From IMG/VR virus record IMGVR_UViG_3300029341_000010: a stretch of 41,441 nt of DNA; one strand, written 5' to 3'. Below are positions 6,299 through 38,854 of this stretch, in pieces. Position 1 is the stretch's first letter. Each line of letters begins with the position of its first letter. Origin of the DNA: a virus. A program made the position numbers and the translations under genes. The notes beneath the pieces are model-generated. The model saw nothing but the letters and a program-made list of their open reading frames with translations, did no database searches and had not been told where the DNA came from.

Positions 6299-6660
6299 GC
6301 CTTTTAGATGATTTTTCGCGCAGCTGCATCATTATGGACAAACTGACAAAGCCTGACGGCGAGGGCGGCTATTCTACCGAGTGGCGCGAGGGCGCAGAGT
6401 TTTCAAATTACGTCGCATTTGACAGCAGCCTTGAAGCACGGCAGGCCGAAGCGCAGGGTGTGACCAGCGTGTATACCGGCATTGTGCGGAAAGATGTGCC
6501 CATCGAGTACGGCAGCGTGTACAAGGACGTGACGACCGGGGCATATTTCCGGGTCACGAGCCGCCCGGAAGAAAAGCGAGCCCCGGCAAGCGCTTCCCCG
6601 ATGCTGCAAAACCTAAAAAGTTTTACGGCTGAACGATTACGGGAGGGATTGCCGACATGA
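6295..6660 (+). CDS. Putative head closure / head-tail adaptor protein
   Basis: ATGA overlap with the upstream stop and a GGAGA RBS 5 nt upstream; an alternative ATG lies at 6283. Size and position match head-tail joining proteins. Confidence 0.55.
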   Translation: MSLLDDFSRSCIIMDKLTKPDGEGGYSTEWREGAEFSNYVAFDSSLEARQAEAQGVTSVYTGIVRKDVPIEYGSVYKDVTTGAYFRVTSRPEEKRAPASASPMLQNLKSFTAERLREGLPT

Positions 6661-7025
6661 CAAAGGGCGCTGCATTACAGCAGTTTTTCGGGCAGTTTAT
6701 GACCGCATACGCCAGCAACGCCGTGCCGGATGACGCTGTACTCCCCTACTTGACCTATGATGCCGTGTTTGACGCATGGGGCGGCGGGGCGGTATCGCTG
6801 ACGGTCAACATGTGGTTCCATACCACGAGAGAAGCGGTGCCAAATGCAAAGGCGCTTGAGCTTTCGGACGCACTGGGCATTGGCGGCGTGACGCTGCCGG
6901 TAGATGGCGGCTTGATTTGGTTAAAACGCGGCTCCCCGTTCTGCCAATCGCTGGCAGATGACACAGACAAAAACCTAAAACGGCGGTACATCAACGTTAC
7001 CGCCGAATTTTTATGCCTAAATTGA
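6657..7025 (+). CDS. Putative tail completion / tail terminator protein
   Basis: A 122-aa ORF overlapping the upstream stop, in the last position before the major tail gene. Confidence 0.5.
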   Translation: MTKGAALQQFFGQFMTAYASNAVPDDAVLPYLTYDAVFDAWGGGAVSLTVNMWFHTTREAVPNAKALELSDALGIGGVTLPVDGGLIWLKRGSPFCQSLADDTDKNLKRRYINVTAEFLCLN

Positions 7026-7034
7026 GGTGAAAGC

Positions 7035-7628
7035 ATGAAATTTACTCGTATTCCCGAATCTGCGTTTAAAGAACTGGTCTTGAACGCGGGTTATCTTGCA
7101 ACTACGTTTGACCCGGCTGCCGGTACGGCGCCGGAAGAAAGTGCGCTGCTGGGCGCTACGACCGGCGGCATCAACTTTACGGCTGTGCCGAGCTTTACCG
7201 ACTTCGGCGAGGATATCGACAACTGCCCCAAGAACATGAAAGAGCTGAAGCAGATTGAATCATGGGAAGTCAAGTGCAGCGGCACTTATGTTTCGGCATC
7301 GACAGAGAATGCCAAGAGCATGCTTGGCGCTGCGGATGTTACGACCACTTCCAAGGTTTCCAAAATCACGCCGCGCAACGACCTGAAAGACAGCGACTTT
7401 ACCGATTTGTGGCTGCTGTGCGACTATTCGGACAAGCACGGCACTACGAGTGGCGGTTTCTGTGCCATTCACATGCTGAATACGCTGTCCACCGGCGGTT
7501 TCAGCTTGCAGACCGGCGACAAGAAAAAAGGCCAGATGAGCTTCGAATACACGGCGCACTACTCCATTACCGCGCAGGACACTGTGCCGTGCGAGGTGTA
7601 TATCAAGGCCGGAGAGGATGAAGCCTGA
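7035..7628 (+). CDS. Major tail protein
   Basis: A 197-aa ORF with a GAGGTGA RBS, immediately upstream of the chaperone pair and the tape measure gene. Confidence 0.75.
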   Translation: MKFTRIPESAFKELVLNAGYLATTFDPAAGTAPEESALLGATTGGINFTAVPSFTDFGEDIDNCPKNMKELKQIESWEVKCSGTYVSASTENAKSMLGAADVTTTSKVSKITPRNDLKDSDFTDLWLLCDYSDKHGTTSGGFCAIHMLNTLSTGGFSLQTGDKKKGQMSFEYTAHYSITAQDTVPCEVYIKAGEDEA

Positions 7629-12404: not shown

Positions 12405-13400
12405 GTGGCAGAAATTAAAAATTTCCCGAATAATGTTGACGAATACATCGGGGCACAAAATGTCATGAAGTGGCTGCACGGGCGTACAAGCGGCGTTTTT
12501 GGCGCGGATGGCAATTTAAGTGTTACTGCAAACGGCAATATGACGGTAAGGGTATCGGATGGTGTTGGTTGGCTTGCGAACGACAAAGCAGACGGTACGG
12601 TTTTTTGGAATGATACCAAAGAACAGACCGGCAGCGAGTTACAGCTGACAATCCCGCTGGCGAATGCTGTATCGCCGCGTATTGACCGTGTTGTTGTGAG
12701 TTGGGACACAGTAGACTATGCAGCAAAACCGCGCATTGAAGTGCTGAAAGGTACGGCGGCTTCTACACCTGTTGCACCGGCACTGACAAACAATAGTCTG
12801 TTGCGGCAGATTTCGCTTGCACAGATTGCAATTCCCGCGGCAGCAAGCAAAATCACGTCGGCCAATATTACCGATGAACGACTTGACAGCACAGTATGCG
12901 GGCTTGTGACTGACTGGGTAAGCGTTGATACCAAGGTAATGCAAGAACAATTTGCTGCTTTTCTTACCCAAATTAAAACCGAGCTGGATCAGCTGTATGC
13001 TGGAACGGCTACGATGATGCGATCGACCTACGACCCGCAGGGGCGGCAGACCGATATTTTCAAGGCAATCGACAAGGTCTCCAACATCTACTACGCCAGG
13101 CTTACGCTGAACGGGTGGACGGCTTGCAGCAGCGCCGACCAGGCCAAAGACCTACTGTACCAGCAGACGGCTACGCTGACCTGCGCGAACAGCCATGCGC
13201 CGGTGGTGACGGCTGCCAGCGAGTTTTTGTCCGGCATCGGCTACGACAAGACCGGGGTGCCCGCTACCGATGATGTGCTGAATGAAGTGCAGGACATTAT
13301 CAACGACGGCGTGACGGTCACGGCGTACAATTCGGTGCTGGTTAAGGTGAAAAAAAAGCCCACTGCCGAAATCCGGGCACGGTGGGTCATTCAAAGCTGA
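12405..13400 (+). CDS. Tail fibre / receptor-binding protein candidate 1
   Basis: GTG start 7 nt after GAGG. The 331-aa product follows the hub gene, and its N-terminal region (SPRIDRVVVSWD...ITDERLDSTVCGLV) resembles Firmicutes phage fibre/baseplate proteins. Confidence 0.6.
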   Translation: MAEIKNFPNNVDEYIGAQNVMKWLHGRTSGVFGADGNLSVTANGNMTVRVSDGVGWLANDKADGTVFWNDTKEQTGSELQLTIPLANAVSPRIDRVVVSWDTVDYAAKPRIEVLKGTAASTPVAPALTNNSLLRQISLAQIAIPAAASKITSANITDERLDSTVCGLVTDWVSVDTKVMQEQFAAFLTQIKTELDQLYAGTATMMRSTYDPQGRQTDIFKAIDKVSNIYYARLTLNGWTACSSADQAKDLLYQQTATLTCANSHAPVVTAASEFLSGIGYDKTGVPATDDVLNEVQDIINDGVTVTAYNSVLVKVKKKPTAEIRARWVIQS

Positions 13401-14258: not shown

Positions 14259-14363
14259 ATGGTACAGTTTTATATCTGCTGCATCAAGCGCGGGCTGATT
14301 ACGCTGGACAAAGTGCCGGAGAAATGGCGTGAGGCCGTAAGGGCAGAGATGGAGGGAGCATGA
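14259..14363 (+). CDS. Very small phage protein (34 aa, XkdX/CD1375-like position)
   Basis: ATG 8 nt after GGAGG. The product MVQFYICCIKRGLITLDKVPEKWREAVRAEMEGA overlaps the start of the next gene. Confidence 0.55.
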   Translation: MVQFYICCIKRGLITLDKVPEKWREAVRAEMEGA

Positions 14364-17032
14364 CGCATGAAGTAGTGCTGCAGGGGTACAACGTAAAGCC
14401 TGGCTCCCTGCAGCTTGGAACCTTTGACAGCTATGGCATTGAGAAAATCCACGTGACGGCAGATGACAGTTGGGATGGGCTGGCCATTGTTGTAACTTTT
14501 AATCCACCCGAAGGTGACGCGGTAGAAGTGCGCGTGCCTGCAGATGGTACGGTAGATGTACCGCCTGAAGCGACCACTTACGAAGGCAAGGGCACCATTG
14601 TATTTTGCGGTGTTGACAGCGGTGTACAGCGCATTACAAAAACAATGGGCTATGTGGTAATCACTCATGCAAATGTGGGCACTGACACAGCCTTTACGCC
14701 GAGTGAGGATTTGGCCGCGCAGGTATTGAACGCCGCTTTGAGCGCAGAGCGCAGCAGCACAGAAGCAAACACGGCGGCACAGGGCGCACAGAAGGCAGCA
14801 GAAAATGCAGCAAGCGCGGCACAGGCAAGTGCCGAATCCGCTAACAAGGCAGCGGCGGAAGCGGCAGCGGCCAAACCTTACACCGAAAGTGCAAAAGCAA
14901 GTGCAGAAGCGGCAAGGGATTCGGAAAATCAGGCGCAGCAATCCAGCACGGAAGCAACCGCTGCGAAAAATGCCGCACAAAATGCACAGGCTGGTGCAGA
15001 AAGCTCCGCATCGGCTGCGGCAAAGTCAGCAAAAGAAGCGGCTGCCAGTGCGGTAAATCTGGACAATGCTGTAAACACGGCAACGCAGAAAGCAGCGGCA
15101 GCAAGCGCTTCGGCAGCAGCGGCAAAGGCGAGCGAGAATGCAGCAGCCAACAGTGAGGCAGCGGCGAAAACGTATGCCGAGAGTGCGCGGACGGCCAAAA
15201 ACAGTGCTGCCGCCAGTGCGGAAACCGCGAACGCGGCGAAAGATTCGGCCAGCGCCAGTGCCAGAGATGCAGCCGCAAGTAAAATTGCAGCTGCGGCCAG
15301 TGAGAAAAATGCAGCGAACAGCGCCAGCTCTGCGGCGGGCAGCGCCAGCGCCGCCAAAGAAAGCGAAAAGGCGGCCGCCAAGAGTGCCGAAGAAGCCAAG
15401 GCATCTACCCCGGCGTCTACGCTGGACGGCATGTACACGGCCATGCTGGACGGCACCAACACGCAGAAGATCTTTAAACTGTGGTGGCCGTTTGCCGTAA
15501 CGCAGAGCGAAAACAAGTACAGCTGCCTGGAACGCTTTGCCGCCATGCTGGACACCGCCTGGGGCGATAAGACCTACACGGTGCGGAACATCCACGAGAG
15601 CGTGAGCGGCGATGCCAGCGGCACCCCGCTGGATGATCTGGCAGACGGCCGCAGCGCTGCGCCCCTGGTGACGGATGCCAGCACGGGCGTGGCAGATTGG
15701 GCCGAAAACGACCCCATGACCTGGTATGTGCGTGCCAACGCCAAGAGCCTGGCAGACGGCACCATGGAGGTGCTGGCCGTTGAGACCGAAGCCGCCTTTG
15801 ATGTGGCCGGCGAGACCGCGCCGGTGTACTGCTTTTCCCCTGCCCTGGCCGTGAAGGAATGGGATGACGGCAGCTACCTTTACACTAGCTGGCACATGCG
15901 CGCAGGCGACGGCTATGTGCCGATGGCGGGCGATGTAGCCCCAGACGGCACCCACCGCCTGCTGACCTGGCACCCTGCTTTTTACGGCGGTAAAAACAGC
16001 GCGGGCGGCATGACAAGCGGCGCTGGCCTGCTGCCCATGTCCTGGACCAGCGCCAACGCGGCGCTACCGCTGGCCCGGAAGCTGACCGCCTACGATGGGC
16101 TGTGGTGCGATTGTGACACCCAGTTTGCCCTGATGGCCTGGCGGCTGCGCCACTGGACGTTAAGCAACAGCGGCCAGCTGGAAGGATGCACCAACTACAA
16201 CTACCAGTACACCCTTGCGGCAGCCGAAACCGGCGTGAAGCGTGTGCTGCTGACCAAAGCCCAGGGTACCAACCTGCTGGTGGGCAGCTGCGTGTGCCTG
16301 GGTGAACACGGAAGCAATACGAACAACGACCGAAACCAGGCATACAACCACGATGTGTTCAATGTTGCCAAGATTTTGAGCGTTGAGACCGTAACCGTGA
16401 ACGATACCGAGTATGCGGCCGTAAACCTGGACCTGGCAAGCACCATCGACACCACGACCACGATGCTGGTAAGCACCATGCCGTGGCCGAACGGCACCAC
16501 CGAAGCACTGCCCGGCCATAGTGACGGCTGCATTGGTAACCTGACCAACGGCAAATACCCGTACCGCATTGCCGGTATGGAAATGCAGATCGGCAGCTAT
16601 TGCGAAGAACTTGACCCGCTGTGGAAGGCCAGCCTGGTGGACGATGACCACTGGCACTATGATGTGTACAGTTGCCGGGACAGTGAGAAGCTGGCCGGAA
16701 GCATCACCGCCAACTACCAGAAGGTGGGTGAATTTGACCTGCCGAACGCGAACAAGTGGAGCTGGAACTTTATCCGCGCATTGAACAAAATGGCGGCAGA
16801 AGCACAAATCCCGACGAAGTTCGGCGGTTCCAGCAGCACCTACGTCAAGGCCGCCTTCCTTTCCCCTGGCGGGGCCGGTGTGTGTGCGCCCTGGCGCTTC
16901 GGCTCCCTCAACGATGGGGGCGCCTGTGGTTTGCCCTGCGCGCATGGTGGCTCTGGCACCGGCACCTCCGGCTGGAACGGCGTGCCGCGGCTTGCTGGAT
17001 CTGGCAAAAAGCGGGGTGAATGGCCCGCGTAA
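14360..17032 (+). CDS. Large tail fibre protein 2 with Ala/Ser-rich coiled stalk and distinct C-terminal domain
   Basis: An 890-aa ORF. About 230 aa form an SAxxAxxSA-type repeat stalk (roughly 14690-15420), a feature seen in many phage tail fibres, followed by a C-terminal domain of about 500 aa. Confidence 0.8.
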   Translation: MTHEVVLQGYNVKPGSLQLGTFDSYGIEKIHVTADDSWDGLAIVVTFNPPEGDAVEVRVPADGTVDVPPEATTYEGKGTIVFCGVDSGVQRITKTMGYVVITHANVGTDTAFTPSEDLAAQVLNAALSAERSSTEANTAAQGAQKAAENAASAAQASAESANKAAAEAAAAKPYTESAKASAEAARDSENQAQQSSTEATAAKNAAQNAQAGAESSASAAAKSAKEAAASAVNLDNAVNTATQKAAAASASAAAAKASENAAANSEAAAKTYAESARTAKNSAAASAETANAAKDSASASARDAAASKIAAAASEKNAANSASSAAGSASAAKESEKAAAKSAEEAKASTPASTLDGMYTAMLDGTNTQKIFKLWWPFAVTQSENKYSCLERFAAMLDTAWGDKTYTVRNIHESVSGDASGTPLDDLADGRSAAPLVTDASTGVADWAENDPMTWYVRANAKSLADGTMEVLAVETEAAFDVAGETAPVYCFSPALAVKEWDDGSYLYTSWHMRAGDGYVPMAGDVAPDGTHRLLTWHPAFYGGKNSAGGMTSGAGLLPMSWTSANAALPLARKLTAYDGLWCDCDTQFALMAWRLRHWTLSNSGQLEGCTNYNYQYTLAAAETGVKRVLLTKAQGTNLLVGSCVCLGEHGSNTNNDRNQAYNHDVFNVAKILSVETVTVNDTEYAAVNLDLASTIDTTTTMLVSTMPWPNGTTEALPGHSDGCIGNLTNGKYPYRIAGMEMQIGSYCEELDPLWKASLVDDDHWHYDVYSCRDSEKLAGSITANYQKVGEFDLPNANKWSWNFIRALNKMAAEAQIPTKFGGSSSTYVKAAFLSPGGAGVCAPWRFGSLNDGGACGLPCAHGGSGTGTSGWNGVPRLAGSGKKRGEWPA

Positions 17033-17042
17033 GCAGGGCCAG

Positions 17043-17062
17043 AGGGGCAGCAGGCCCCTTTT
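17043..17062 (+). terminator. Weak hairpin / possible terminator
   Basis: AGGGGC-AGCAG-GCCCCT followed by only TTTT. Confidence 0.3.
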
Positions 17063-17086
17063 GACGATAAGAGAGGTGAAAGCAGG

Positions 17087-17437
17087 ATGAAGTACACGGA
17101 AACACTGGACCACGCCCCCGCTGCTGTGGAGCTGGAACGGCTGCCTGATGGCACCGCCTGGCTGCGGCTGCACAAGGATGTGGTGCAGGGAAAGACCGAA
17201 GCGCCGGAGGGTGAAGAGGGCGGGCCGTGCTGGACGGCCACCACTGCGGTGGCCCAGCTGGGCACCGACCGCGCGGCCGAAACGGTGGAGAGCATCACCG
17301 CCAACCTGGACGACTGGTGGACCTATGCCGAAGCATGGGAAGAACAGCCGCCCATGACGCTGAACCAGCGCATGGATGCGGTGGAAACCGCCCTGGCCGA
17401 CATTGTGGACATTATGACGGGAGGTGCCGAAGCATGA
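17087..17437 (+). CDS. Tail-fibre accessory protein (second XkdW-position gene)
   Basis: A 116-aa acidic ORF with a GAGAGGTGA RBS. Its C-terminus LNQRMDAVETALADIVDIMTGGAEA parallels that of 13940-14257. Confidence 0.6.
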   Translation: MKYTETLDHAPAAVELERLPDGTAWLRLHKDVVQGKTEAPEGEEGGPCWTATTAVAQLGTDRAAETVESITANLDDWWTYAEAWEEQPPMTLNQRMDAVETALADIVDIMTGGAEA

Positions 17438-17556
17438 GCATTTGGCTGCTTTTGTACCGCATGAAAAAGATCACTGCGGCACAGATTTGGGAGCGCGTTG
17501 ACAGCGGCGCAATCAGCGCCGAAGAGGCCGTGAAAATCTGCGGCCCCAGACCGTGA
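17434..17556 (+). CDS. XkdX-family small protein (40 aa)
   Basis: ATGA overlap with the upstream stop. The product MSIWLLLYRMKKITAAQIWERVDSGAISAEEAVKICGPRP fits the XkdX pattern. Confidence 0.7.
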   Translation: MSIWLLLYRMKKITAAQIWERVDSGAISAEEAVKICGPRP

Positions 17557-17682
17557 GCGTAAAGGTCGGCCTGCTGACGCGTGCGATGCTCGTGCTGTGG
17601 GATTATAAAGAGGCCATCCCGGACGCACTGCCCTGCTGAGGGAGTATGAGCGTCTGGTGATGAATAATGATGAGGTGATACC

Positions 17683-18927
17683 TTGACAGGAATTTTTAAA
17701 GGACGATTTCGGGTGCGGTACAACTACGCCCGATTTGGTTACACGCGGGGTGGCGGTAAGACGTGGCACGGCGGCATTGATTTGGAAGCGCTGGACGATG
17801 ATACCATTTACATGCCAACCTACAAGGGCAAGAGCATTTCCGGCACGGTGACCCGGGCGCGGATTGTGACCGACAAAAACAATGCGACGTGGGAGTGGGG
17901 ATATTACGTCTGTGTCCAGCTGGACGCAAACCAGACGCCGGATGCCGTCAACTACCTGTATTTCTGCCACTGCGCCAAGCTGTTGGTCAAGGCTGGGCAG
18001 AAAGTCAAAAGCGGCGATGCACTGGCCGTTATGGGCAACACCGGCAATGCCGCGTTGGCAGACCCGCCGTACAAACACTGTCACTTCGAGGTGCGTGCCA
18101 CTGCCACCGGCAAGGGGCTTGACCCGACGGCGTATGCGGGCTGCCCGAATGAAGTGGGAACCTACGGCGACCAGCCTGCGCAGACAAGCGGTGAGGAAGT
18201 GCTGATTGATGTATCCCACCACCAGGGCACTATCGATTGGGCGAGTGTTCCCTACCGCGCCATTGTTCGCATCGGGTATCGCGGCTACGGCAGCGGAAAG
18301 CTGATGAAGGACGAGCAGTACGATGCCAACCTTGCAGGGACGAAAGCGAACGCAAAGTTGTTCGGCTTTTACTTCTTCTCACAGGCGGTCACGGTGGATG
18401 AAGCCCGGGAGGAGGCAGACTTTTGTGCAAGCCTTGCACCGGCTGGCTACCCGCTGTTTTTTGATAGCGAATGGGGGCATACGACCGATTCCGGCATACA
18501 TGATGGTCGCGCCGACAACCTGACAACAGACCAGCGCACGGCAATCGCAATGGCATTTTGCGAGAAGGCCAAAGCGCACGGATTTACGGCAGGCATTTAC
18601 ACATTCACATCGTTTGCAAGCGGGAACATCGACTACGCTTACCTGTGTGAAGATTACATCGGTTGGCTGGCCGATACCCGCACAAACTACGACAAAACGC
18701 TGCCGCGCTACATCCACCAATACGGGCAGGGCAGCGTCGCAGGCATCACCGGCACGGTCGACCTCAACCATTTTGTTAAGACCCTGCCTGCAGTGAACAA
18801 GCCTGCAAGCAAGCTACAAGTAATTACCATTGGGCCGGTATCGCAGGGAGATGCGGATGCAATCTACTTGCTGTGTAGGGAACGCGGCCTGGCGGATGCC
18901 GGGCTGTATAAGAGTGAGTGGGCATAA
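17683..18927 (+). CDS. Endolysin: M23 peptidase + GH25 muramidase + short C-terminal domain
   Basis: TTG start after GAGGTGA. M23 motifs WHGGIDLEA and HCHFEV are present, as are GH25 motifs IDVSHHQGTIDWASV and FFDSEW, plus about 45 aa of C-terminal tail. Confidence 0.88.
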   Translation: MTGIFKGRFRVRYNYARFGYTRGGGKTWHGGIDLEALDDDTIYMPTYKGKSISGTVTRARIVTDKNNATWEWGYYVCVQLDANQTPDAVNYLYFCHCAKLLVKAGQKVKSGDALAVMGNTGNAALADPPYKHCHFEVRATATGKGLDPTAYAGCPNEVGTYGDQPAQTSGEEVLIDVSHHQGTIDWASVPYRAIVRIGYRGYGSGKLMKDEQYDANLAGTKANAKLFGFYFFSQAVTVDEAREEADFCASLAPAGYPLFFDSEWGHTTDSGIHDGRADNLTTDQRTAIAMAFCEKAKAHGFTAGIYTFTSFASGNIDYAYLCEDYIGWLADTRTNYDKTLPRYIHQYGQGSVAGITGTVDLNHFVKTLPAVNKPASKLQVITIGPVSQGDADAIYLLCRERGLADAGLYKSEWA

Positions 18928-19405: not shown

Positions 19406-19570
19406 ATGCCAAAGTTTGATTTTGTCGGCGGTTTGCTGACCGATGAAGAAACGGACGTTTTGCAGCTTCGGCGGCGCGGCTGGCGCAATGCTGATATTGC
19501 GGCAGAACTGAATTGCAGCGAGCGCACGGTAAAACGGCGCGTACACAGCATCAAAAACAAAATAGGCTGA
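19406..19570 (+). CDS. Small HTH protein (LuxR / sigma-70 region-4 type, 54 aa)
   Basis: Not in the ORF track because it is under 60 aa. The product MPKFDFVGGLLTDEETDVLQLRRRGWRNADIAAELNCSERTVKRRVHSIKNKIG shows the classic region-4 HTH pattern. Confidence 0.6.
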   Translation: MPKFDFVGGLLTDEETDVLQLRRRGWRNADIAAELNCSERTVKRRVHSIKNKIG

Positions 19571-19576
19571 TTTAAA

Positions 19577-19615
19577 GGGCACGGCTGCTTTTGCGGCCGC
19601 GCCCTTTTTTCTTTT
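19577..19615 (+). terminator. Rho-independent terminator
   Basis: GGGCACGGCTGC-TTTT-GCGGCCGCGCCC (one mismatch, one G-U pair) followed by TTTTTTCTTTT. Confidence 0.7.
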
Positions 19616-19625
19616 GTCCCAAAGA

Positions 19626-19673
19626 CGGCACAATGTTGGCACTTTACTGGCCTACGTTGTGCCGTTTTTTTTT
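19626..19673 (+). terminator. Second terminator-like hairpin with a 9-T run
   Basis: CGGCACAA / TTGTGCCG form an 8-bp stem around a long loop, followed by TTTTTTTTT. Confidence 0.5.
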
Positions 19674-19702
19674 GTACAATTAAGGAAAAAGGAGCGGTGC
19701 AG

Positions 19703-20080
19703 ATGGCATATAGGCAAATCAACCTAAACCCAGAGCAAAAGCGCGTTGGCGATTGCACCGTCAGAGCCATTGCGGCCGCCACGCATCAAGAGTGGGCGGC
19801 TGTATATGCGGCGCTTGTGTTGGCAGGATTTGAACTACATGATATGCCGTCTGCAAACTATGTTTGGGGCAGCTATCTGCGCCGATGCGGGTGGAAGCGC
19901 TACACGTTGCCAAACAGCTGCCCGGATTGTTACACAGTGGCGCAGTTTGCAAAAGACCACCCGGACGGAACATACATTTTGGCAATGGCTACGCATGTTG
20001 TGTGCGTGCAGAATGGGGATTGGCTAGATACATGGGACAGCGGAGATGAAGTGCCGCTGTACTACTGGCAGAAAGGATGA
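19703..20080 (+). CDS. Hypothetical protein with possible Cys/His (papain-like) active-site pattern
   Basis: ATG 8 nt after AAAAAGGAG. The product contains VGDCTVRAIA early and ATHVVCV...DTWDSG late. It is the first gene after the late-operon terminators. Confidence 0.6.
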   Translation: MAYRQINLNPEQKRVGDCTVRAIAAATHQEWAAVYAALVLAGFELHDMPSANYVWGSYLRRCGWKRYTLPNSCPDCYTVAQFAKDHPDGTYILAMATHVVCVQNGDWLDTWDSGDEVPLYYWQKG

Positions 20081-20086
20081 TTGACA

Positions 20087-20551
20087 ATGGCGTTTGGCGT
20101 ACCGTATCAGCCCGGATTTGCGCCGGGATATTACCCGATGGGGCAGCCGTCCGCAATGCCAGACCAGCTTGCACAGCTTCGACAAGCGGCATATCCGCAG
20201 CAGCAACAGACTGCACAGCAGACTGCTCCCATTATTTGGGTGCAGGGAGAAGAAGCGGCAAAGTCGTATCTTTGTGCGCCGGGAAACAGCGTGCTTTTGA
20301 TGGACAGCGAGAAAAGCTCGTTCTATATCAAAACAGTGGATGCCAGCGGTATGCCGCAGCCGTTGCGCATCTTCGATTATTCGGAACGCACAGCGGCACA
20401 GAAACAGCCTACACAGGCCGCGCAAGCGCAAGCCGGAGAGTTTGTCACCCGTGCAGAGTTTGACGCGCTGGCAGCCCGTTTTGACGCGCTGACGGCAGAC
20501 AAACCACTGACAAAGAAAAAGGAGAGCGAAAATGCCAAATCCTCTGTTTAA
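20087..20551 (+). CDS. Hypothetical Pro/Gln-rich protein with a compact central domain
   Basis: The N-terminus is PYQPGFAPGYYPMGQP...QQQQTAQQ. The central segment is IIWVQGEEAAKSYLCAPGNSVLLMDSEKSSFYIKTVDASGMPQPLRIFDY, and the C-terminus is a helical tail. Confidence 0.65.
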   Translation: MAFGVPYQPGFAPGYYPMGQPSAMPDQLAQLRQAAYPQQQQTAQQTAPIIWVQGEEAAKSYLCAPGNSVLLMDSEKSSFYIKTVDASGMPQPLRIFDYSERTAAQKQPTQAAQAQAGEFVTRAEFDALAARFDALTADKPLTKKKESENAKSSV

Positions 20552-20750
20552 CGTTTTAGGTGGCGGCAAAATGCCGGGCGCGATGGGACAATTTCAGCAG
20601 ATGATGCAGCAGTTTCAACAGTTCCGACAGAATTTCCAAGGCGACCCGAAGCAAGAAGTTCAAAAGCTGCTGCAATCTGGGAAAATGAGCCAGCAGCAGC
20701 TAAACCAGCTGCAAGCGATGGCGCAGCAATTTCAGAGCTTTTTAAAATAG
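20532..20750 (+). CDS. Hypothetical Gln-rich small protein (72 aa)
   Basis: ATG after AAAAGGAG. The product contains FQQMMQQFQQFRQNFQG...QQQLNQLQAMAQQFQSFLK and overlaps the upstream gene by 20 nt. Confidence 0.6.
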   Translation: MPNPLFNVLGGGKMPGAMGQFQQMMQQFQQFRQNFQGDPKQEVQKLLQSGKMSQQQLNQLQAMAQQFQSFLK

Positions 20751-20804
20751 GTTCAACCCGTGCGCACGGTGAACAATACATTCAACTTTTGAAAGGAGTT
20801 AAAC

Positions 20805-21584
20805 ATGAGTCTTTCTTCGGACGGCACTGTTATGACAATGCCTGTTCAGCCCGCGAATACGGGCAATGGCAACGGCTGGGGCTTTGGCGGCGATGGTTTG
20901 TTGTATATTATTATTCTCTTCCTCTTTGTTTTCTGCGGCTGGGGCGGCAACTGGGGTGGCAATAGTGGCTTTGGTGCTGGCAACGGCGCTGGGGTGGTTG
21001 ACGGTTACGTTCTTACGTCAGATTTTGCCAACATTGAGCGCAAAATTGACAACGTGAACAATGGCTTGTGCGACGGCTTTTATCAGCAGGCGCAGCTTAT
21101 CAACGGCGTACAGCAGGGCATGAGCAACGGCTTTATGTCGGCTGAAATCAGCCGCGCAAACCAGCAGGCCGCATTTATGCAGCAGCTCTTTGCCATGCAG
21201 ATGCAGCAGGCCAACTGCTGCTGCGAGACCCGCGAGGCGATTCAGGGCGTGAATTACAATTCGGCAACGCAGGCTTGTGAGACACGCCAGACGATCAGCA
21301 ACGGCACGCGCGACATCATCGACAACCAGAACGCCAATGCGAGAGCGATTTTGGACGCTATGACCGCCCAGCGCATTGAGGCCAAAGACGCCAAGATTGC
21401 CGAGCAGAACCAGCAGCTTTTCGCCGCTCAGCTTGCCGCAAGTCAGGCTGCGCAGAATGAAACGCTGAAAGCCTATATGAGTGGGCAGCTCGCCTATTAC
21501 AACCCCCGCCCTGTTCCGGCTTTCCAGGTTCCGGCGCCGTATCAGTACGGGAATTGCGGCGGCTGCAACGGCTGCGGCTGCTAA
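20805..21584 (+). CDS. Hypothetical Gly-rich membrane protein with a Gln/Asn-rich coil and a Cys-rich C-terminus
   Basis: GAAAGGAG RBS. Segments are GNGNGWGFGGDG, the TM helix LLYIIILFLFVFCGW and GGNWGGNSGFGAGNGAG, then a Q/N-rich region with NCCCETREAI and ACETRQTI. The protein ends YQYGNCGGCNGCGC. Confidence 0.7.
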   Translation: MSLSSDGTVMTMPVQPANTGNGNGWGFGGDGLLYIIILFLFVFCGWGGNWGGNSGFGAGNGAGVVDGYVLTSDFANIERKIDNVNNGLCDGFYQQAQLINGVQQGMSNGFMSAEISRANQQAAFMQQLFAMQMQQANCCCETREAIQGVNYNSATQACETRQTISNGTRDIIDNQNANARAILDAMTAQRIEAKDAKIAEQNQQLFAAQLAASQAAQNETLKAYMSGQLAYYNPRPVPAFQVPAPYQYGNCGGCNGCGC

Positions 21585-21647
21585 AACCGAATACGGCAAC
21601 TTGTCGGGACATCCGACATGTTCGGCCCCGTGCCGATGATGCAAAAT

Positions 21648-21680
21648 GTGGCGGGGCAATCGTCCCGCCACTATTTTTTT
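21648..21680 (+). terminator. Rho-independent terminator inside the accessory block
   Basis: A perfect 8-bp stem GTGGCGGG / CCCGCCAC with an 8-nt loop, followed by TATTTTTTT. It abuts the RBS of the next gene. Confidence 0.8.
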
Positions 21681-21695
21681 GAAAGGAATGATTTT

Positions 21696-22118
21696 ATGGC
21701 TGAATTTACAAACGCCAATACCGTGAGCGTGGCAGCAGGCCAGAATGTGCCACTGACGGAAACGGCAGTAGCGGGTAAGGGCTGTGTCGTACACAGAGAG
21801 GGCGCCGGTATTGTTACGCTGCGCGGCATTACAAACCAGTGCAAAGCCCGTTTCAAAGTAGGATTTGGTGCAAACATTGCTATCCCTACCGGCGGCACAG
21901 TTGGAGCTATTACTGCGGCGCTTGCCATCAACGGTGAACCGCTGAGCAGTGCGAGTGCAACCGTGACACCGGCAGCAGTAGAAAACTATTTTAATATTTA
22001 CGTCACGGCTTTTGTTGAAGTTCCGCGCGGTTGCTGCCTTACAGTTGCCGCCGAAAACACAAGCACACAAACCGTTTTGTTTGCGAACGCAAACTTTATG
22101 GTTGAGAGAGTGAGCTGA
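21696..22118 (+). CDS. Hypothetical all-beta protein, possibly TNF/C1q-like (BclA C-terminal-domain-like)
   Basis: A 140-aa product with ATG after GAAAGGA. The alternating beta-strand pattern (GIVTLRG...ARFKVGFGANIAI...ALAINGEPL...NIYVTAFVEV...LTVAAEN...ANANFMVERV) resembles that fold. The fold assignment is by eye only. Confidence 0.55.
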   Translation: MAEFTNANTVSVAAGQNVPLTETAVAGKGCVVHREGAGIVTLRGITNQCKARFKVGFGANIAIPTGGTVGAITAALAINGEPLSSASATVTPAAVENYFNIYVTAFVEVPRGCCLTVAAENTSTQTVLFANANFMVERVS

Positions 22119-22131
22119 AAGGAGCGCTATT

Positions 22132-22527
22132 ATGAGTATGAAAGTTATGTACGATTTAAAGGACATGCTGTGCGCAGAGCTTGACGAAATCGGCAAAAAA
22201 GGCGAAATGTCTGCTGGCGACTTGGAAACTGTTCACAAGCTGACTGACACCATCAAAAACATCGACAAAATTGTCATGCTGGAAGATGACGGCTACAGCC
22301 GAGATGAAGATTACAGCCGGGATGGTGATTGGGGCACCAATATGCGCGGCAATTATGGACGCGGAAGCAGCTATGCGCGGCGCGGTTCGCATTATGTGCG
22401 CGGCCATTACAGCCGAGACGATGCGCGAGACAGCATGATGCGAAAGCTGGAAGACATGTTACGAAACGTTGATGGATACGACCGCGAGACTATCCAGCAT
22501 TGCATCGACGAGCTTAAAAACACTTGA
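22132..22527 (+). CDS. Hypothetical protein with a helical N-terminus and an Arg/Tyr/Asp/Gly-rich middle
   Basis: AAAGGAG RBS. The product contains MSAGDLETVHKLTDTIKNIDKIVMLEDDGYSRDEDYSRDGDW...RRGSHYVRGHYSRDD...MMRKLEDMLRNV. Confidence 0.65.
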   Translation: MSMKVMYDLKDMLCAELDEIGKKGEMSAGDLETVHKLTDTIKNIDKIVMLEDDGYSRDEDYSRDGDWGTNMRGNYGRGSSYARRGSHYVRGHYSRDDARDSMMRKLEDMLRNVDGYDRETIQHCIDELKNT

Positions 22528-22541
22528 CGGAGGTGGCGGCT

Positions 22542-22895
22542 ATGGTGGACGTGCGAGAGATTGACGGCGCTATAGCCGAAATCGAAAACAGCGAACTTAC
22601 CATGACCAGAGTTAAAAATTTGGCGGCGCTGTATGTTGTGAAAAATCAGCAACTTGCAGATGTATCCCCTGCCCCACAAAAAGCAGAATGGCAAGAGCCT
22701 GCGCGTTACTACGAAGCAGCAGATCCGCCTACAAGGGCTGCTGTTGGCGGCAGTGACTTTTTGCAGGCTGTGTCAAACGTAGACACCACAGCAGCGCTGA
22801 AAGTGCTGGATGAGCTTATGTCGGCCTTGTACGTAACAAACCCTAAAGTTTATAATAACGTAATGCGGAAATTGGAGCGTTTACAGGATGAGTGA
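22542..22895 (+). CDS. Hypothetical protein (C-terminal motif shared with the next small ORF)
   Basis: ATG 8 nt after GGAGG; the track start TTG 22524 is less likely. The C-terminus is ALKVLDELMSALYVTNPKVYNNVMRKLERLQ. Confidence 0.6.
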   Translation: MVDVREIDGAIAEIENSELTMTRVKNLAALYVVKNQQLADVSPAPQKAEWQEPARYYEAADPPTRAAVGGSDFLQAVSNVDTTAALKVLDELMSALYVTNPKVYNNVMRKLERLQDE

Positions 22896-23025
22896 ATTTT
22901 TGGAGATTGTAAGCAAGGCTGATGACGGGCGAGTGTGGCGTGTGCTGGATGAGTTTATGGATGCGCTGAAAGAAGCACGGCCGGAAGTGTATAACGATTT
23001 GGTACACAGCTTGCAGAGAAAATAG
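22888..23025 (+). CDS. Small protein (45 aa) paralogous to the C-terminus of 22542-22895
   Basis: Not in the track. The product MSEFLEIVSKADDGRVWRVLDEFMDALKEARPEVYNDLVHSLQRK aligns with VLDELMSALYVTNPKVYNNVMRKL in the upstream gene. Confidence 0.5.
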   Translation: MSEFLEIVSKADDGRVWRVLDEFMDALKEARPEVYNDLVHSLQRK

Positions 23026-23028
23026 GCG

Positions 23029-23050
23029 AGTGTGTACTAAAGTGTGTACT
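23029..23050 (+). repeat. Two direct copies of AGTGTGTACT (candidate integrase arm-type sites, left of core)
   Basis: Copies lie at 23029-23038 and 23041-23050. The same 10-mer recurs twice at 23225-23247. Confidence 0.6.
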
Positions 23051-23060
23051 TGAAAAAGTA

Positions 23061-23096
23061 AACACCGTAGATTTCGACGAATCTACGGTGTTTTTT
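23061..23096 (+). terminator. Rho-independent terminator closing the + strand late/accessory transcription
   Basis: A 13-bp perfect stem AACACCGTAGATT / AATCTACGGTGTT with a 6-nt loop, followed by a T-run. Confidence 0.85.
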
Positions 23097-23100
23097 AAAA

Positions 23101-23125
23101 AGCGGCTGATGGGAGTCGAACCCAC
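23101..23125 (-). other. 3' fragment of a tRNA gene (T-arm + 3' acceptor strand); candidate attP core
   Basis: The minus strand reads GTGGG-TTCGACT-CCCAT-CAGCCGC-T, which is a T-stem/T-loop with canonical TTCGA plus a 7-nt acceptor strand. No matching 5' half of a tRNA is nearby. It lies next to int. Confidence 0.65.
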
Positions 23126-23224
23126 GGAGATACAGAATCATATCGATTCAACAAGCAAAAAATGGCGATGATACGGAACGCTATTGTTCTGCATTTTTGC
23201 GGCAAACCATATATTTTCCAAAAA

Positions 23225-23247
23225 AGTGTGTACTTTTAGTGTGTACT
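23225..23247 (+). repeat. Two direct copies of AGTGTGTACT (candidate arm-type sites, right of core; overlap the int stop)
   Basis: Copies lie at 23225-23234 and 23238-23247, in the same orientation as the left pair. Confidence 0.6.
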
Positions 23248-24312
23248 TTTTAGCACATCCTTAAATGTTTCGTCAATCGCAGAGGCTATTTTTTCGGCCT
23301 GGCCGTTGACTGCGTGGCCGTACACGCCAAATGTATCCATATTTTTGCTGTGCCCAACAATCTGTTTGAGCTGCCCTTCCGGGAGTGCGCTTGCAATCGA
23401 TACAAACGTGTGTCGAAGCTCGTAAAGAGAAACATAATTTATTCCGTTGTAATCGCAATACTTTCTCCACCATTTATAGAGCAAGTGCTCATCTGAGATG
23501 CCAAAAACACTTTTACCATTTTTTGTAAGTTCGCGTTGCGCATCTATTACGCTTTTAGCCATGTCGGACAATTCAATTGCTCTAACCGCATTGTCATTTT
23601 TACCTGTTGTTTTTTCTCCATAAATGTTGATCGCACGCCGCAGAAAAATTCTGTTTTCTTTCACATCTTCCCACTGCATGCCAATCAACTCACCCGGTCG
23701 AATCCCGGTCAGAACAGCAAGGCGGTATGCGTTGATATAAGGGTCTTTGGCTTCCTTGCCCATGTACTTGGTTTTGTCGCTTGACAATAAAATTGCTAAA
23801 TCGTCTGGCTGCAATATTTTCTTTTGCGGCTTTGGAGTTCCAGCGGGAATGTTCAAGTTATCTGGTACAAACGTTGTATAGCCTGAATTGCGTGCAAACC
23901 GAAAAAACGATGTGATGTCTCCATAGATATTTTGAAGCGTTTTACGGCTTTTTCCAGCGGCTTTGGCGTTGTCTAAAACTGTTTGCACTTGCTGCTGCGT
24001 CAACGATTCCAACCGCCGGTGCCCAATTTCCGGCTGAATCCATATGCGCCAGCGGCTTTCCTTTGGTCTAAAATTGCTTATGCCTGATATTTTTGATTCT
24101 CTCGCAAGGTATTCTTTATATGCGCTCTCGACCGTTTTTCCGCGCGTTTGCAAGCCGTTTTCTAGCCAGTCATCTGCTTTTTTGTTGGCTTCCCGCTGGC
24201 CTGTGCGCCCCGGCTTGGCGCTGGTAAAGGTTTTGCGCACGCCGTCTTTCTGCACGTTTATCTGCCAGCGCTGGGCAGATTCAATCCATTTTGCGGTATT
24301 TGTTCTTTTCAT
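23236..24312 (-). CDS. int: Tyrosine integrase
   Basis: A 358-aa product with an N-terminal SAM-like domain. Catalytic-domain motifs are LTGIRPGEL (Arg), ELRHTFVS (H-x-x-R) and GHS...VYGH (Tyr). Confidence 0.92.
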   Translation of the reverse strand: MKRTNTAKWIESAQRWQINVQKDGVRKTFTSAKPGRTGQREANKKADDWLENGLQTRGKTVESAYKEYLARESKISGISNFRPKESRWRIWIQPEIGHRRLESLTQQQVQTVLDNAKAAGKSRKTLQNIYGDITSFFRFARNSGYTTFVPDNLNIPAGTPKPQKKILQPDDLAILLSSDKTKYMGKEAKDPYINAYRLAVLTGIRPGELIGMQWEDVKENRIFLRRAINIYGEKTTGKNDNAVRAIELSDMAKSVIDAQRELTKNGKSVFGISDEHLLYKWWRKYCDYNGINYVSLYELRHTFVSIASALPEGQLKQIVGHSKNMDTFGVYGHAVNGQAEKIASAIDETFKDVLKSTH

Positions 24313-38780: not shown

Positions 38781-38854
38781 GCGGGCGTAGTTCAATGCAG
38801 AACGGCGGTCTCCAAAACCGCAAGATGAGGGGTCAAGACCTTCCACCCGTGCCA
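38781..38854 (+). tRNA. tRNA-Trp (anticodon CCA), CCA end encoded
   Basis: A manual cloverleaf fold. The acceptor stem is GCGGGCG/CACCCGT (1 mismatch, 1 G-U pair) and the D-stem is GTTC/GAAC. The anticodon stem GCGGT/ACCGC carries the loop CTCCAAA, and the T-arm is GAGGG-GTCAAGA-CCTTC. The total is 74 nt. The D-loop and T54 are atypical. Confidence 0.6.

Follow-up and report, generated by a model that had tools for sequence, protein, structure and literature searches.

What is a block of eight genes, none of which looks like standard phage machinery, doing between the lysis genes and the attachment site of a temperate phage? The question is raised by a stretch of viral DNA of 41,441 nucleotides (nt; IMG/VR record IMGVR_UViG_3300029341_000010), here called the window and meaning that stretch at its full length, which is the complete genome of a temperate siphovirus, arranged like that of SPP1, whose host is Gemmiger formicilis or a close relative. 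The window holds structural genes (terminase, portal, gp7-like minor head protein, scaffold, major head protein, and connectors) as well as tail genes (major tail protein, tape measure, Dit, and minor tail proteins), and the block in question consists of eight + strand open reading frames (ORFs) at 19703-23025, g1 to g8 below, between the lysin/holin genes and attP/integrase. An initial annotation, made from the sequence alone, had placed these genes after the late-operon terminators and before attP and the integrase gene, had suggested a surface or spore-associated assembly module, and had offered the co-occurrence of their families in other genomes as a test. The position and the co-occurrence both hold: the cassette is a single, self-contained phage system, transferred horizontally as a whole, and not a collection of unrelated morons.

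A conserved cassette that moves as a unit

The eight genes are real and all are under purifying selection, as is evident from the Shine-Dalgarno-like site in front of every one of them, from the recurrence of the exact proteins on 150-1000 public contigs each (310 for g8), and from pairwise ratios of nonsynonymous to synonymous substitution (dN/dS) against relatives that are mostly 0.03-0.25, with single comparisons reaching 0.41 (g7) and 0.63 (g8). No comparable support from ribosome-binding site (RBS), recurrence or dN/dS was found for the long antisense ORF at 21018-22196. The genes follow one another on the + strand as g1 (19703-20080; 125 amino acids, aa, from ATG), g2 (20087-20551), g3 (20532-20750; 72 aa), g4 (20805-21584; 259 aa), g5 (21696-22118; 140 aa, its start placed by a PHROG alignment at M27 of a longer ORF), g6 (22132-22527), g7 (22542-22895) and g8 (22888-23025; 45 aa). 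Public annotation names all eight products ‘hypothetical protein’. Scans of Pfam, NCBIfam and PADLOC returned only sub-threshold noise, and the PHROG matches are only to families of unknown function, with no structural or lysis PHROG among them, in agreement with the initial view that this is not standard virion or lysis machinery. None of the eight proteins has a signal peptide, a lipoprotein box, or GXY collagen repeats.

The families travel together. A search with g4 found at least 594 relatives in IMG/VR, and collinearity was counted in the 47 loci with enough flanking DNA; a g5 profile run against one genome per GTDB species found 80 loci, mostly in Oscillospiraceae, Lachnospiraceae and Acutalibacteraceae from gut and rumen, 52 of them with enough room. 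Genes g1 to g6 are collinear in 47/47 of the IMG/VR loci and in 39/52 of the species genomes, and the same records are matched by searches with g2, g4, g5 and g6. Co-occurrence of the cassette families is far above chance and extends well outside this genome, which is the point on which the initial annotation had staked its proposal. Moreover, the homologous DNA that the window shares with other prophages spans exactly 19709-23095, from g1 to the hairpin after g8, while the lysins and integrases that flank this shared block are unrelated or far more divergent. Because the homology is confined to this interval and the flanks differ, it follows that the cassette is exchanged as a block. The literature on Gemmiger prophages and on BclA/TNF-like proteins in phages and the gut virome yielded no description of it.

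The settings in which the cassette is found are diverse. In Dulem virus 33 it is collinear and takes up the place that it has in the window. The cultured Butyrivibrio phage Ceridwen carries the whole cassette, with g1 to g6 collinear, after a lysin, a holin and a small helix-turn-helix (HTH) gene; Ceridwen has no integrase, only lytic growth has been seen, and its host is Butyrivibrio fibrisolvens DSM 3071. In Dulem virus 35 (PP511522) the cassette lies between the gp7-like minor capsid gene and the scaffold and major capsid genes, 15 kb from the lysin and integrase, with two holin-like membrane proteins and a small HTH protein encoded between g1 and g2, and in Dulem virus 39 it directly follows the integrase, and none of the ORFs translated there is holin-like. 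Dulem virus 35 has a g1 homologue (locus L088, 6409-6777) that is unannotated, its record having instead two overlapping short ORFs at 6506-6607 and 6641-7090, and the ORF beside the lysin of this phage has no membrane segment. Among phages that share the tail gene of the window at 12405-13400 and have enough downstream DNA, 47 of 51 carry the cassette; for two of the four that lack it, extra genes push the cassette off the locus in one case and a prophage remnant is present in the other. Loci that were matched by the integrase and have no cassette are different elements, or have too little flanking sequence.

Genes for HNH homing endonucleases are inserted at three intergenic sites of the cassette, namely g3|g4 (NUMOD4+HNH_3), g4|g5 and g5|g6 (phrog_374, E ~1e-65), with coordinates of 6864-7415 (- strand) in locus L001, 7133-7798 in L037, and 8436-9230 in L086; an insert between g3 and g4 is also present in L010, L032, L038, L040 and L061. 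Insertion at three sites suggests that the cassette is a common target among co-infecting phages, and fits a sequence that such phages share.

Such conservation also brings to mind a virion-associated accessory module, that is, late structural extras (head or tail decoration, a TNF-knob fibre, internal or ejected proteins, among them a g4 that inserts into the membrane) that would be matured by g1 within the particle or on its surface. In the loci whose flanks were read the cassette is co-oriented at the end of the late operon, Dulem virus 39 excepted; it is near-universal among the tail-gene relatives and is retained by the virulent Ceridwen. Homing endonucleases favour conserved late genes, and virion proteins typically undergo proteolytic maturation, both of which can be counted for a virion role. 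The position between capsid genes in Dulem virus 35 points the same way, yet it was discounted as proof of a structural role: the gp7-scaffold interval is a known variable region of SPP1-like phages, and the position is therefore weak evidence. On the other hand, the phage of the window already has a complete SPP1-like structural set, and its cassette comes after the lysis genes and two terminator hairpins, with -10-like boxes and an internal terminator of its own. Furthermore, the cassette occupies unrelated genome positions, including that next to the integrase in Dulem virus 39, and no member matches a structural PHROG, the match of g2 to a head-fibre family being at E 0.25. We regard a virion role as possible, though rather unlikely.

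Predicted peptidases, a membrane protein and a jelly roll

The initial annotation had picked out by eye a possible Cys/His hydrolase, two Gln-rich proteins, a Gly-rich membrane protein with a CCC and a tail motif, a protein with a HYVRGHYSRDD-type middle, and two proteins with a common VLDE[LF]M motif, and each of these can be recognised in the proteins described here. The first of them, g1, is predicted to be a minimal papain-like (clan CA) Cys-His-Asp peptidase. Cys20, His100 and Asp111 are invariant in an alignment of 62 homologues, and in an AlphaFold2 (AF2) model with a predicted local distance difference test score (pLDDT) of 94, Cys20 starts the helix at 20-29, His100 stands just before the strand at 101-105, and Asp111 ends the strand at 108-111. 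The closest PDB structure is Josephin-2, at a non-significant E of 0.27 and a template modelling (TM) score of 0.45, and g1 matched nothing among Pfam families and PDB sequences. The protein has no cell-wall-binding domain, and its likeness to CHAP or NlpC/P60 lysins is within noise. Its family (phrog_3754) comprises 2594 clusters at 50% identity, nearly all of them stand-alone, and includes relatives without a cassette in Bacillus Tsamsa-like phages, Geobacillus GBK2 and Lak megaphages; one source labels a homologue ‘putative papain-like endopeptidase’. Among 150 diverse representatives there are no fusions to known domains, only tandem g1 domains (P0342, P0353) or in-frame g1-g2 fusions (P0336, P0378 and also P0361).

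A variant of the cassette, with the order g2', g3', g4, g5, g6', is missing g1 and has a HExxH protein of ~105 aa after g6 (for example at 9977-10294 in L089, 7307-7621 in L143 and 8988-9377 in L150, and likewise in 10 further loci). This protein matches Peptidase_M78/DUF6782/SprT-like profiles (Pfam 9e-6) and metallo-protease families of PHROG. The loci with room for the comparison hold g1 only in 90 cases, the HExxH protein only in 10, both in 0 and neither in 3. That one class of peptidase is replaced by another argues, together with the g1-g2 fusions, that proteolysis is integral to the system. A role for g1 as a transglutaminase acting on the Gln-rich proteins was also considered, and is disfavoured by the metallopeptidase that takes its place in the variants.

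A peptidase and a membrane protein (g4, below) encoded directly after holin-like genes, as is the case in the window, in Ceridwen and in variant-B loci, could belong to a lysis-accessory module that works with the holin at the last step, be it in disruption of the envelope or S-layer, in timing, or in the holin-dependent release of g5 and the low-complexity proteins. The two holin-like membrane proteins embedded in the cassette of Dulem virus 35, far from its lysin, fit this notion, as does a small transmembrane protein at most 1.3 kb upstream in 35/51 species-level loci, although the latter is a raw count with no background control. However, Dulem virus 39 has its cassette by the integrase and away from any holin-like ORF that was translated, the g1 protein has no wall-binding domain and no structural likeness to lysins above noise, and the PHROG searches matched no lysis family. 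Nor is any lysis system known to need so many parts, and a lysis-accessory role appears quite unlikely.

The g4 protein (phrog_16490) is the sole transmembrane protein of the eight, with one transmembrane helix at about aa 27-46 by hydropathy, 12% Gly, a CCC motif and a GNCGGCNGCGC tail. From the N- to the C-terminus it is composed of an MPV.P motif, a Gly/Asn/Trp-rich flank, the transmembrane helix, a long Gln/Asn-rich helical region that includes the CCC motif, a Pro-rich segment (PVPAF.VPAPY), and the Cys-rich tail. C138-C140, P236 and P238 are invariant in the alignment, and MPV.P, the Gly/Trp-rich juxtamembrane region, CCC, PxPxF/Y and the Cys-rich tail are kept across lineages. Profile searches of Pfam, NCBIfam, PADLOC and PDB gave no match. 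Genes g4 and g5 form the invariant core of both cassette variants, and g3 and g4 are the most conserved proteins of the cassette.

The remaining members are mostly of low complexity. The g2 protein (phrog_21718; 12% Gln) has a Pro/Gln/Tyr-rich low-complexity N-terminus, a conserved beta-rich core of ~55 aa (WVQGEE...FYIK..D.SGMP), an amphipathic helix at the C-terminus, and a Lys-rich tail, and has no match in profile searches of Pfam and PDB. The helical g3 (phrog_22984) is 28% Gln, with an NPLFN.LGGG motif at its N-terminus and a dN/dS of 0.03-0.11. In g6, helical ends surround a disordered Tyr/Ser/Arg/Asp/Gly-rich, YSRD-rich middle; it matches phrog_28802 at 2e-8 and is present in 47/47 IMG/VR and 44/52 species loci. 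The helical g7 carries SDFL...VLDELM.AL....P.VY in its C-terminal ~45 aa, of which g8 is a paralogue (BLASTP, 44% identity over 43 aa, E 8e-12). It is also the variable member of the cassette, being replaced in some lineages by a DUF7841 protein or a HExxH peptidase. A 154-aa DUF7841 protein (Pfam 4e-23) occupies the place of g7 in L037 (8567-9031) and the related L043-L052, and among divergent cassette members from Ceridwen and the Dulem viruses Pfam recognised only DUF7841 and the scaffold protein beside the cassette of Dulem virus 35.

The all-beta protein g5 had been likened to the TNF/C1q-like C-terminal domain (CTD) of BclA, a likeness that stood for the fold and not for the sequence family. 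The AF2 model (pLDDT 78, predicted TM score 0.74) has ten strands, and Foldseek places it nearest the F-BclA CTD (9h38; E 6e-7, TM score 0.7); the top PDB matches are 9h38, 2z5w, 1wck (BclA), 8d02 (BxpB) and 9h3d (ExsF), at E 6e-7 to 6e-5 and TM scores of 0.66-0.74, followed by the TNF ligands EDA-A1 and 4-1BBL. In BFVD the best matches are stand-alone proteins of 130-145 aa from uncultivated gut phages, two of which bear the automatic name ‘BclA protein’, and then collagen/C1q proteins. The model thus predicts a TNF/C1q/BclA-CTD-like jelly roll, at the level of fold only: Pfam, including BclA_C (PF18573), gave no match at E up to 1, and a profile of 11 diverse g5 sequences found no BclA, BxpB or ExsF among all PDB sequences at E up to 10. 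The protein stands alone, with no collagen part, fibre shaft or coiled-coil N-terminal part; its conserved cysteines are Cys30, Cys49 and the pair C113-C114, and by analogy with its fold class it is probably a trimer. Also among the neighbours of g5 in PDB and BFVD are the central spike knob of phi812, the short-fibre CBD of A-1(L), a ‘C1q domain containing protein’ and ‘fibritin neck whiskers’, and since phage TNF/C1q-like domains are typically the knobs of fibres and spikes, this is a further point for a virion role.

The fold was one reason for the initial suggestion of a spore-associated module, which would be a spore or exosporium assembly of cross-linkable proteins, with a BclA/BxpB-like nap unit and coat-like proteins rich in Cys, Gln and Tyr, under a GerE-like regulator. 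The nearest folds are those of BclA-CTD, BxpB and ExsF, some carriers come from orders that contain sporeformers, the HTH protein encoded next to the cassette matches the Pfam family named GerE, and the Cys-rich g4, the Gln-rich g2 and g3 and the Tyr/Ser/Arg-rich g6 may recall spore-coat proteins. Nevertheless, the named hosts Gemmiger formicilis and Butyrivibrio fibrisolvens are described as non-sporeforming, Pfam GerE is a generic LuxR-type HTH family whose name implies no orthology to the sporulation regulator, and no match was found to BclA_C, to the exosporium leader TIGR03720, or to coat or YjcZ families. With the PDB profile search free of BclA, with collagen repeats absent, and with a lytic phage that keeps the cassette, the association with spores is left unsupported; it is largely refuted for the named hosts and in general very improbable. 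The idea of a cross-linkable surface assembly would likewise be tentative, with a membrane segment in g4 only and no signal peptide among the eight proteins.

Boundaries and candidate control elements

The cassette has boundaries of its own. Upstream, an M23+GH25 endolysin (17683-18927) is followed by two small membrane proteins and then by a 54-aa HTH protein of the LuxR/GerE or sigma-70 region-4 type (19406-19570, + strand), which lies just upstream of the cassette and outside the island as initially drawn. This small protein matches Pfam GerE (PF00196) with 39.5 bits against a cut-off of 23.5 (E 4e-10) and Sigma70_r4_2 at 7e-7, as well as sigma-factor and HTH families of PHROG and, in PADLOC, generic CARF-HTH models. 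Small HTH ORFs of a comparable kind stand before the cassette in Ceridwen, L013 and prophage L083, and the protein of the window can be viewed as a candidate regulator of the cassette. The boundary between late operon and cassette (19582-19680, + strand) consists of a terminator hairpin at 19582-19599 with a T run and a second hairpin at 19627-19663 with a run of nine T residues, the end of which is overlapped by a TG-extended -10-like box, TGTACAAT (19673-19680), ~22 nt before the start of g1. This arrangement of hairpin, T run and (TG)TATAAT-like box is found upstream of g1 in many loci.

A second potential control site lies 30-45 nt upstream of g4, where the dyad-symmetric element GTTCAACCCGTGCGCACGGTGAAC (20751-20774, core 20758-20769) is located. 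More than 40 of 77 non-redundant loci have a zero-loop palindrome with a GCGC or GGCC centre at this point, often before a TG-extended -10-like box, and its arms vary by lineage while the symmetry is kept (CGTGGCCACG, ATGCGGCCGCAT, TCTGCGCAGA, GTCTGGCCAGAC); arms of at least 6 are present in 39/77 loci compared with 12% of shuffles. The palindrome may be an operator or a processing site.

The most elaborate of these elements is an RNA of three hairpins (21594-21679, ~86 nt, + strand) between g4 and g5, made up of P1 (21602-21618), P2 (21622-21636; UCGGC-CCCGU-GCCGA) and P3 (21648-21671). P3 is an intrinsic terminator, followed by a U run and the g5 RBS, and corresponds to the strong internal terminator that the initial annotation had described as splitting the island. 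Covariation was tested with 28 sequences that are less than 80% alike, using column shuffles and slid windows as controls. Pairing is found in 93% of cells, as opposed to 81% in shuffles and 34-61% in slid controls, compensatory changes affect 14/19 pairs, and 0/500 shuffles reach the observed values. A covariance model (E < 1e-4) finds one + strand copy per locus in 48/87 sources, each of them directly behind g4, and 1.06 Mb of sequence, the remainder of the window included, gave no further copy; copies are located at 8348-8437 in L001, at 1434-1521 in L128, and in 45 other loci. The core motif of P2 has at least 120 matches in IMG/VR and, among the matches listed, g4 is just upstream in 115 of the 116 with room. 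In Rfam only rpsL_pseudo was matched, with 22 bits against a gathering threshold of 70 (E 0.21). No sigma-70-type promoter is evident between the P3 terminator and the g5 RBS, so that expression of g5-g8 should need read-through, and such dependence would mean that the RNA probably sets or regulates the ratio of g1-g4 to g5-g8. We view the structure as a candidate new family of cis-regulatory or attenuator RNAs; it could equally be a 3' stabiliser, or a partial terminator that sets the polarity of the operon. An extra ORF of ~76 aa occurs between g4 and g5 in L100, L095, L107, L109, L113, L121 and L124, lying downstream of the RNA in these GTDB loci, and at 8430-8660 in L089 (Dulem virus 39), which has no detectable RNA element.

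Downstream, a terminator scan found a bidirectional terminator-like hairpin at 23060-23093 that ends the cassette, after which come the attP core (23102-23129, minus sense), which resembles a tRNA 3' end (T arm and acceptor), and a tyrosine integrase recognised by Pfam (23236-24312, - strand). Homology to the integrated prophage L083 stops at 23095, the point at which L083 runs on into a tRNA-like 3' end. The cassette in prophages abuts host genes. In the case of L083 the integration site lies beside host flavodiiron and Rnf genes.

This location is what had been called the classic slot for lysogenic conversion, and one could propose a module for conversion or superinfection exclusion (Sie), expressed from the prophage, in which g4 and its partners, acting at the host membrane, change the surface of the cell or keep incoming phages out. 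In keeping with this proposal are the place beside attP, where the prophage ends and host genes begin, the moron-like arrangement that is bounded by terminators and has promoter-like boxes, the membrane protein with a regulator nearby, and the predominance of temperate carriers. However, exclusion and conversion genes are usually variable, whereas the cassette is unusually invariant among relatives; g1-g8 have no PADLOC match at E up to 1, and they lack signal peptides and lipoprotein boxes. The cassette is also found in Ceridwen, which is lytic and has no integrase, and known Sie systems are far simpler than seven to eight genes with a protease and an RNA element. The adjacency to attP noted initially is thus real, and what has suffered is its use as an explanation: Ceridwen, the places that the cassette occupies in Dulem viruses 35 and 39, and the invariance all weaken the case for pure lysogenic conversion, and we rate a module of this kind as unlikely.

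Elsewhere in the window there is a tRNA-Trp (CCA) gene at 38781-38854, and an ORF of 890 aa at 14360-17032 takes the tail-fibre position. The composition of this ORF (60% G+C) is unlike the rest of the genome, and its PHROG match, to a family of unknown function, is limited to the C-terminal 590 aa. In L318, a relative that shares the tail gene, three extra ORFs of 367, 211 and 452 aa are located at 16511-17869 between the fibre gene and the lysin.

A proposed late assembly and its likeness to known systems

What, then, might the cassette make? We tentatively favour, at somewhat short of an even chance, an assembly that is built late in infection under its own regulation, matured by a protease and anchored in a membrane. 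Transcription would take place at the tail end of the late region, possibly from the cassette's own promoters as well, in which TG-extended -10 boxes would go together with dyad or repeat sites and not with -35 boxes; the small HTH protein of the sigma-region-4/LuxR type that is encoded next door would be a candidate regulator, and the three-hairpin RNA with its terminator would set the output of g5-g8 relative to g1-g4. The g4 protein, with its transmembrane helix, helical stalk, CCC motif and Pro-/Cys-rich C-terminus, would serve as an anchor in the cytoplasmic membrane of the infected cell. The g5 protein, presumed to be a trimer like BxpB/ExsF, would be the globular part on which peptide segments of its partners dock, on the model of ExsF and the Pro-rich exosporium leader. 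Clefts of the ExsF trimer bind the Pro-rich leader, and BclA is N-terminally cleaved before its attachment to ExsF (PMC12357932); for g4 and g5 this docking is an analogy only. Proteins g2, g3, g6, g7 and g8 might be adaptor or matrix subunits, and g1, or the HExxH peptidase in its stead, might be the maturation peptidase for g2 and perhaps other subunits. The role of such an assembly would be at the host envelope late in infection, in release or exclusion, and not in spores.

Several observations weigh against this proposal. A signal peptide is missing from g5, and g4, whose transmembrane helix has few charges beside it, is of ambiguous topology; g4 also failed to match the exosporium leader TIGR03720 of NCBIfam. 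The candidate regulator was found by hidden Markov model in only about half of the loci (28/47 in IMG/VR, 23/52 among species genomes), and a correspondence between HTH variant and palindrome type was rejected, as L010 has an HTH protein identical to that of the window and a different palindrome. The promoters are putative, being consensus look-alikes only, and an antiterminator helix between the P2 loop and the 5' arm of P3 was rejected, with pairing equal to that of shuffles and no covariation. Finally, a virion-associated role would be just as compatible with a position at the end of the late operon and with the conservation. The sequence data fail to separate four readings: late envelope assembly, virion accessory, exclusion or conversion, and lysis accessory. 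A more speculative idea, which we consider doubtful, is that phages of gut and rumen Clostridia carry a multi-protein machine in which a peptidase of the cysteine or zinc type, under a new RNA attenuator, matures low-complexity proteins rich in Gln, Tyr, Gly and Cys; together with the membrane-anchored stalk of g4 and a BxpB/C1q-like g5 trimer, these would self-assemble late into a nap- or matrix-like layer. Such a phage-borne layer would correspond to the exosporium nap, or to viral occlusion bodies, on vegetative cells or virions; if true, it would affect particle persistence, adhesion or release in the gut.

Regardless of which role applies, the families comprise thousands of clusters and occur in phages of Clostridia that abound in the human gut and the rumen, with Gemmiger, other Oscillospiraceae, Lachnospiraceae and Acutalibacteraceae as hosts. 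Six to eight genes that are kept in order across host families, together with an RNA element, two interchangeable peptidases, fusions and a TNF/C1q-like protein, point to a real machine with a function that phage biology has yet to describe. Should the module affect release, exclusion or particle stability, it would bear on the phage-host dynamics of major butyrate-producing gut commensals, and the system is experimentally tractable because the cultured phage Ceridwen holds the whole cassette.

We regard the system as new in kind, although its function could prove to be a variant of a familiar phage task. In line with the initial annotation, which could name none, no described system of this composition turned up in Pfam, NCBIfam, PADLOC, Rfam, PDB sequences or the functions of PHROG, and tests against candidate families fail except for single folds. 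At the level of single parts the likenesses are clear. The predicted g1 peptidase shares with clan CA enzymes such as Josephin deubiquitinases and C39-type leader peptidases a Cys at the N-terminus of a helix and His/Asp on the following strands, but has only 125 aa and no significant structural or sequence match to the characterised families. The element between g4 and g5 is similar to terminator-based leader RNAs (riboswitch, RAT, T-box and HK022 put-type) in its hairpins, terminator, next-gene RBS and covariation, and differs from these leader and attenuator RNAs in belonging to no Rfam family and in having no covarying antiterminator. The predicted fold of g5 is that of the C1q/TNF-knob fibres, spikes and collagen-like proteins of phages and giant viruses, yet g5 is without a shaft and is encoded outside the tail module.

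For the cassette as a whole, two comparisons are informative. With the Bacillus exosporium nap (1wck, 8d02, 9h3d, 9h38) it shares the predicted TNF/C1q jelly-roll fold, at a TM score of ~0.7, in a protein that, like BxpB/ExsF, is stand-alone (~140 aa in g5). The Cys- and Pro-rich neighbour proteins are also alike, the nap having a Cys-rich ExsY/CotY basal layer, and the protease of the cassette has a parallel in the N-terminal cleavage of BclA that precedes ExsF attachment (PMC12357932). The cassette differs from the nap in that it has no collagen repeats or leader match and shows no detectable sequence homology to nap proteins; it is encoded by phages of non-sporeforming hosts and kept by a lytic phage, and its partner protein is a membrane protein with a coiled-coil-like stalk, as opposed to a para-crystalline basal layer. 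With the morons found at the junction of lysis genes and attP, the cassette shares a prophage-end position, terminators and promoter-like boxes. Typical morons, however, vary among relatives, whereas the cassette is near-invariant among relatives with varying flanks, has a protease of its own among its eight genes and a probable RNA regulator between two of them, and is also at home in a virulent phage, within a head module, and on the other side of an integrase.

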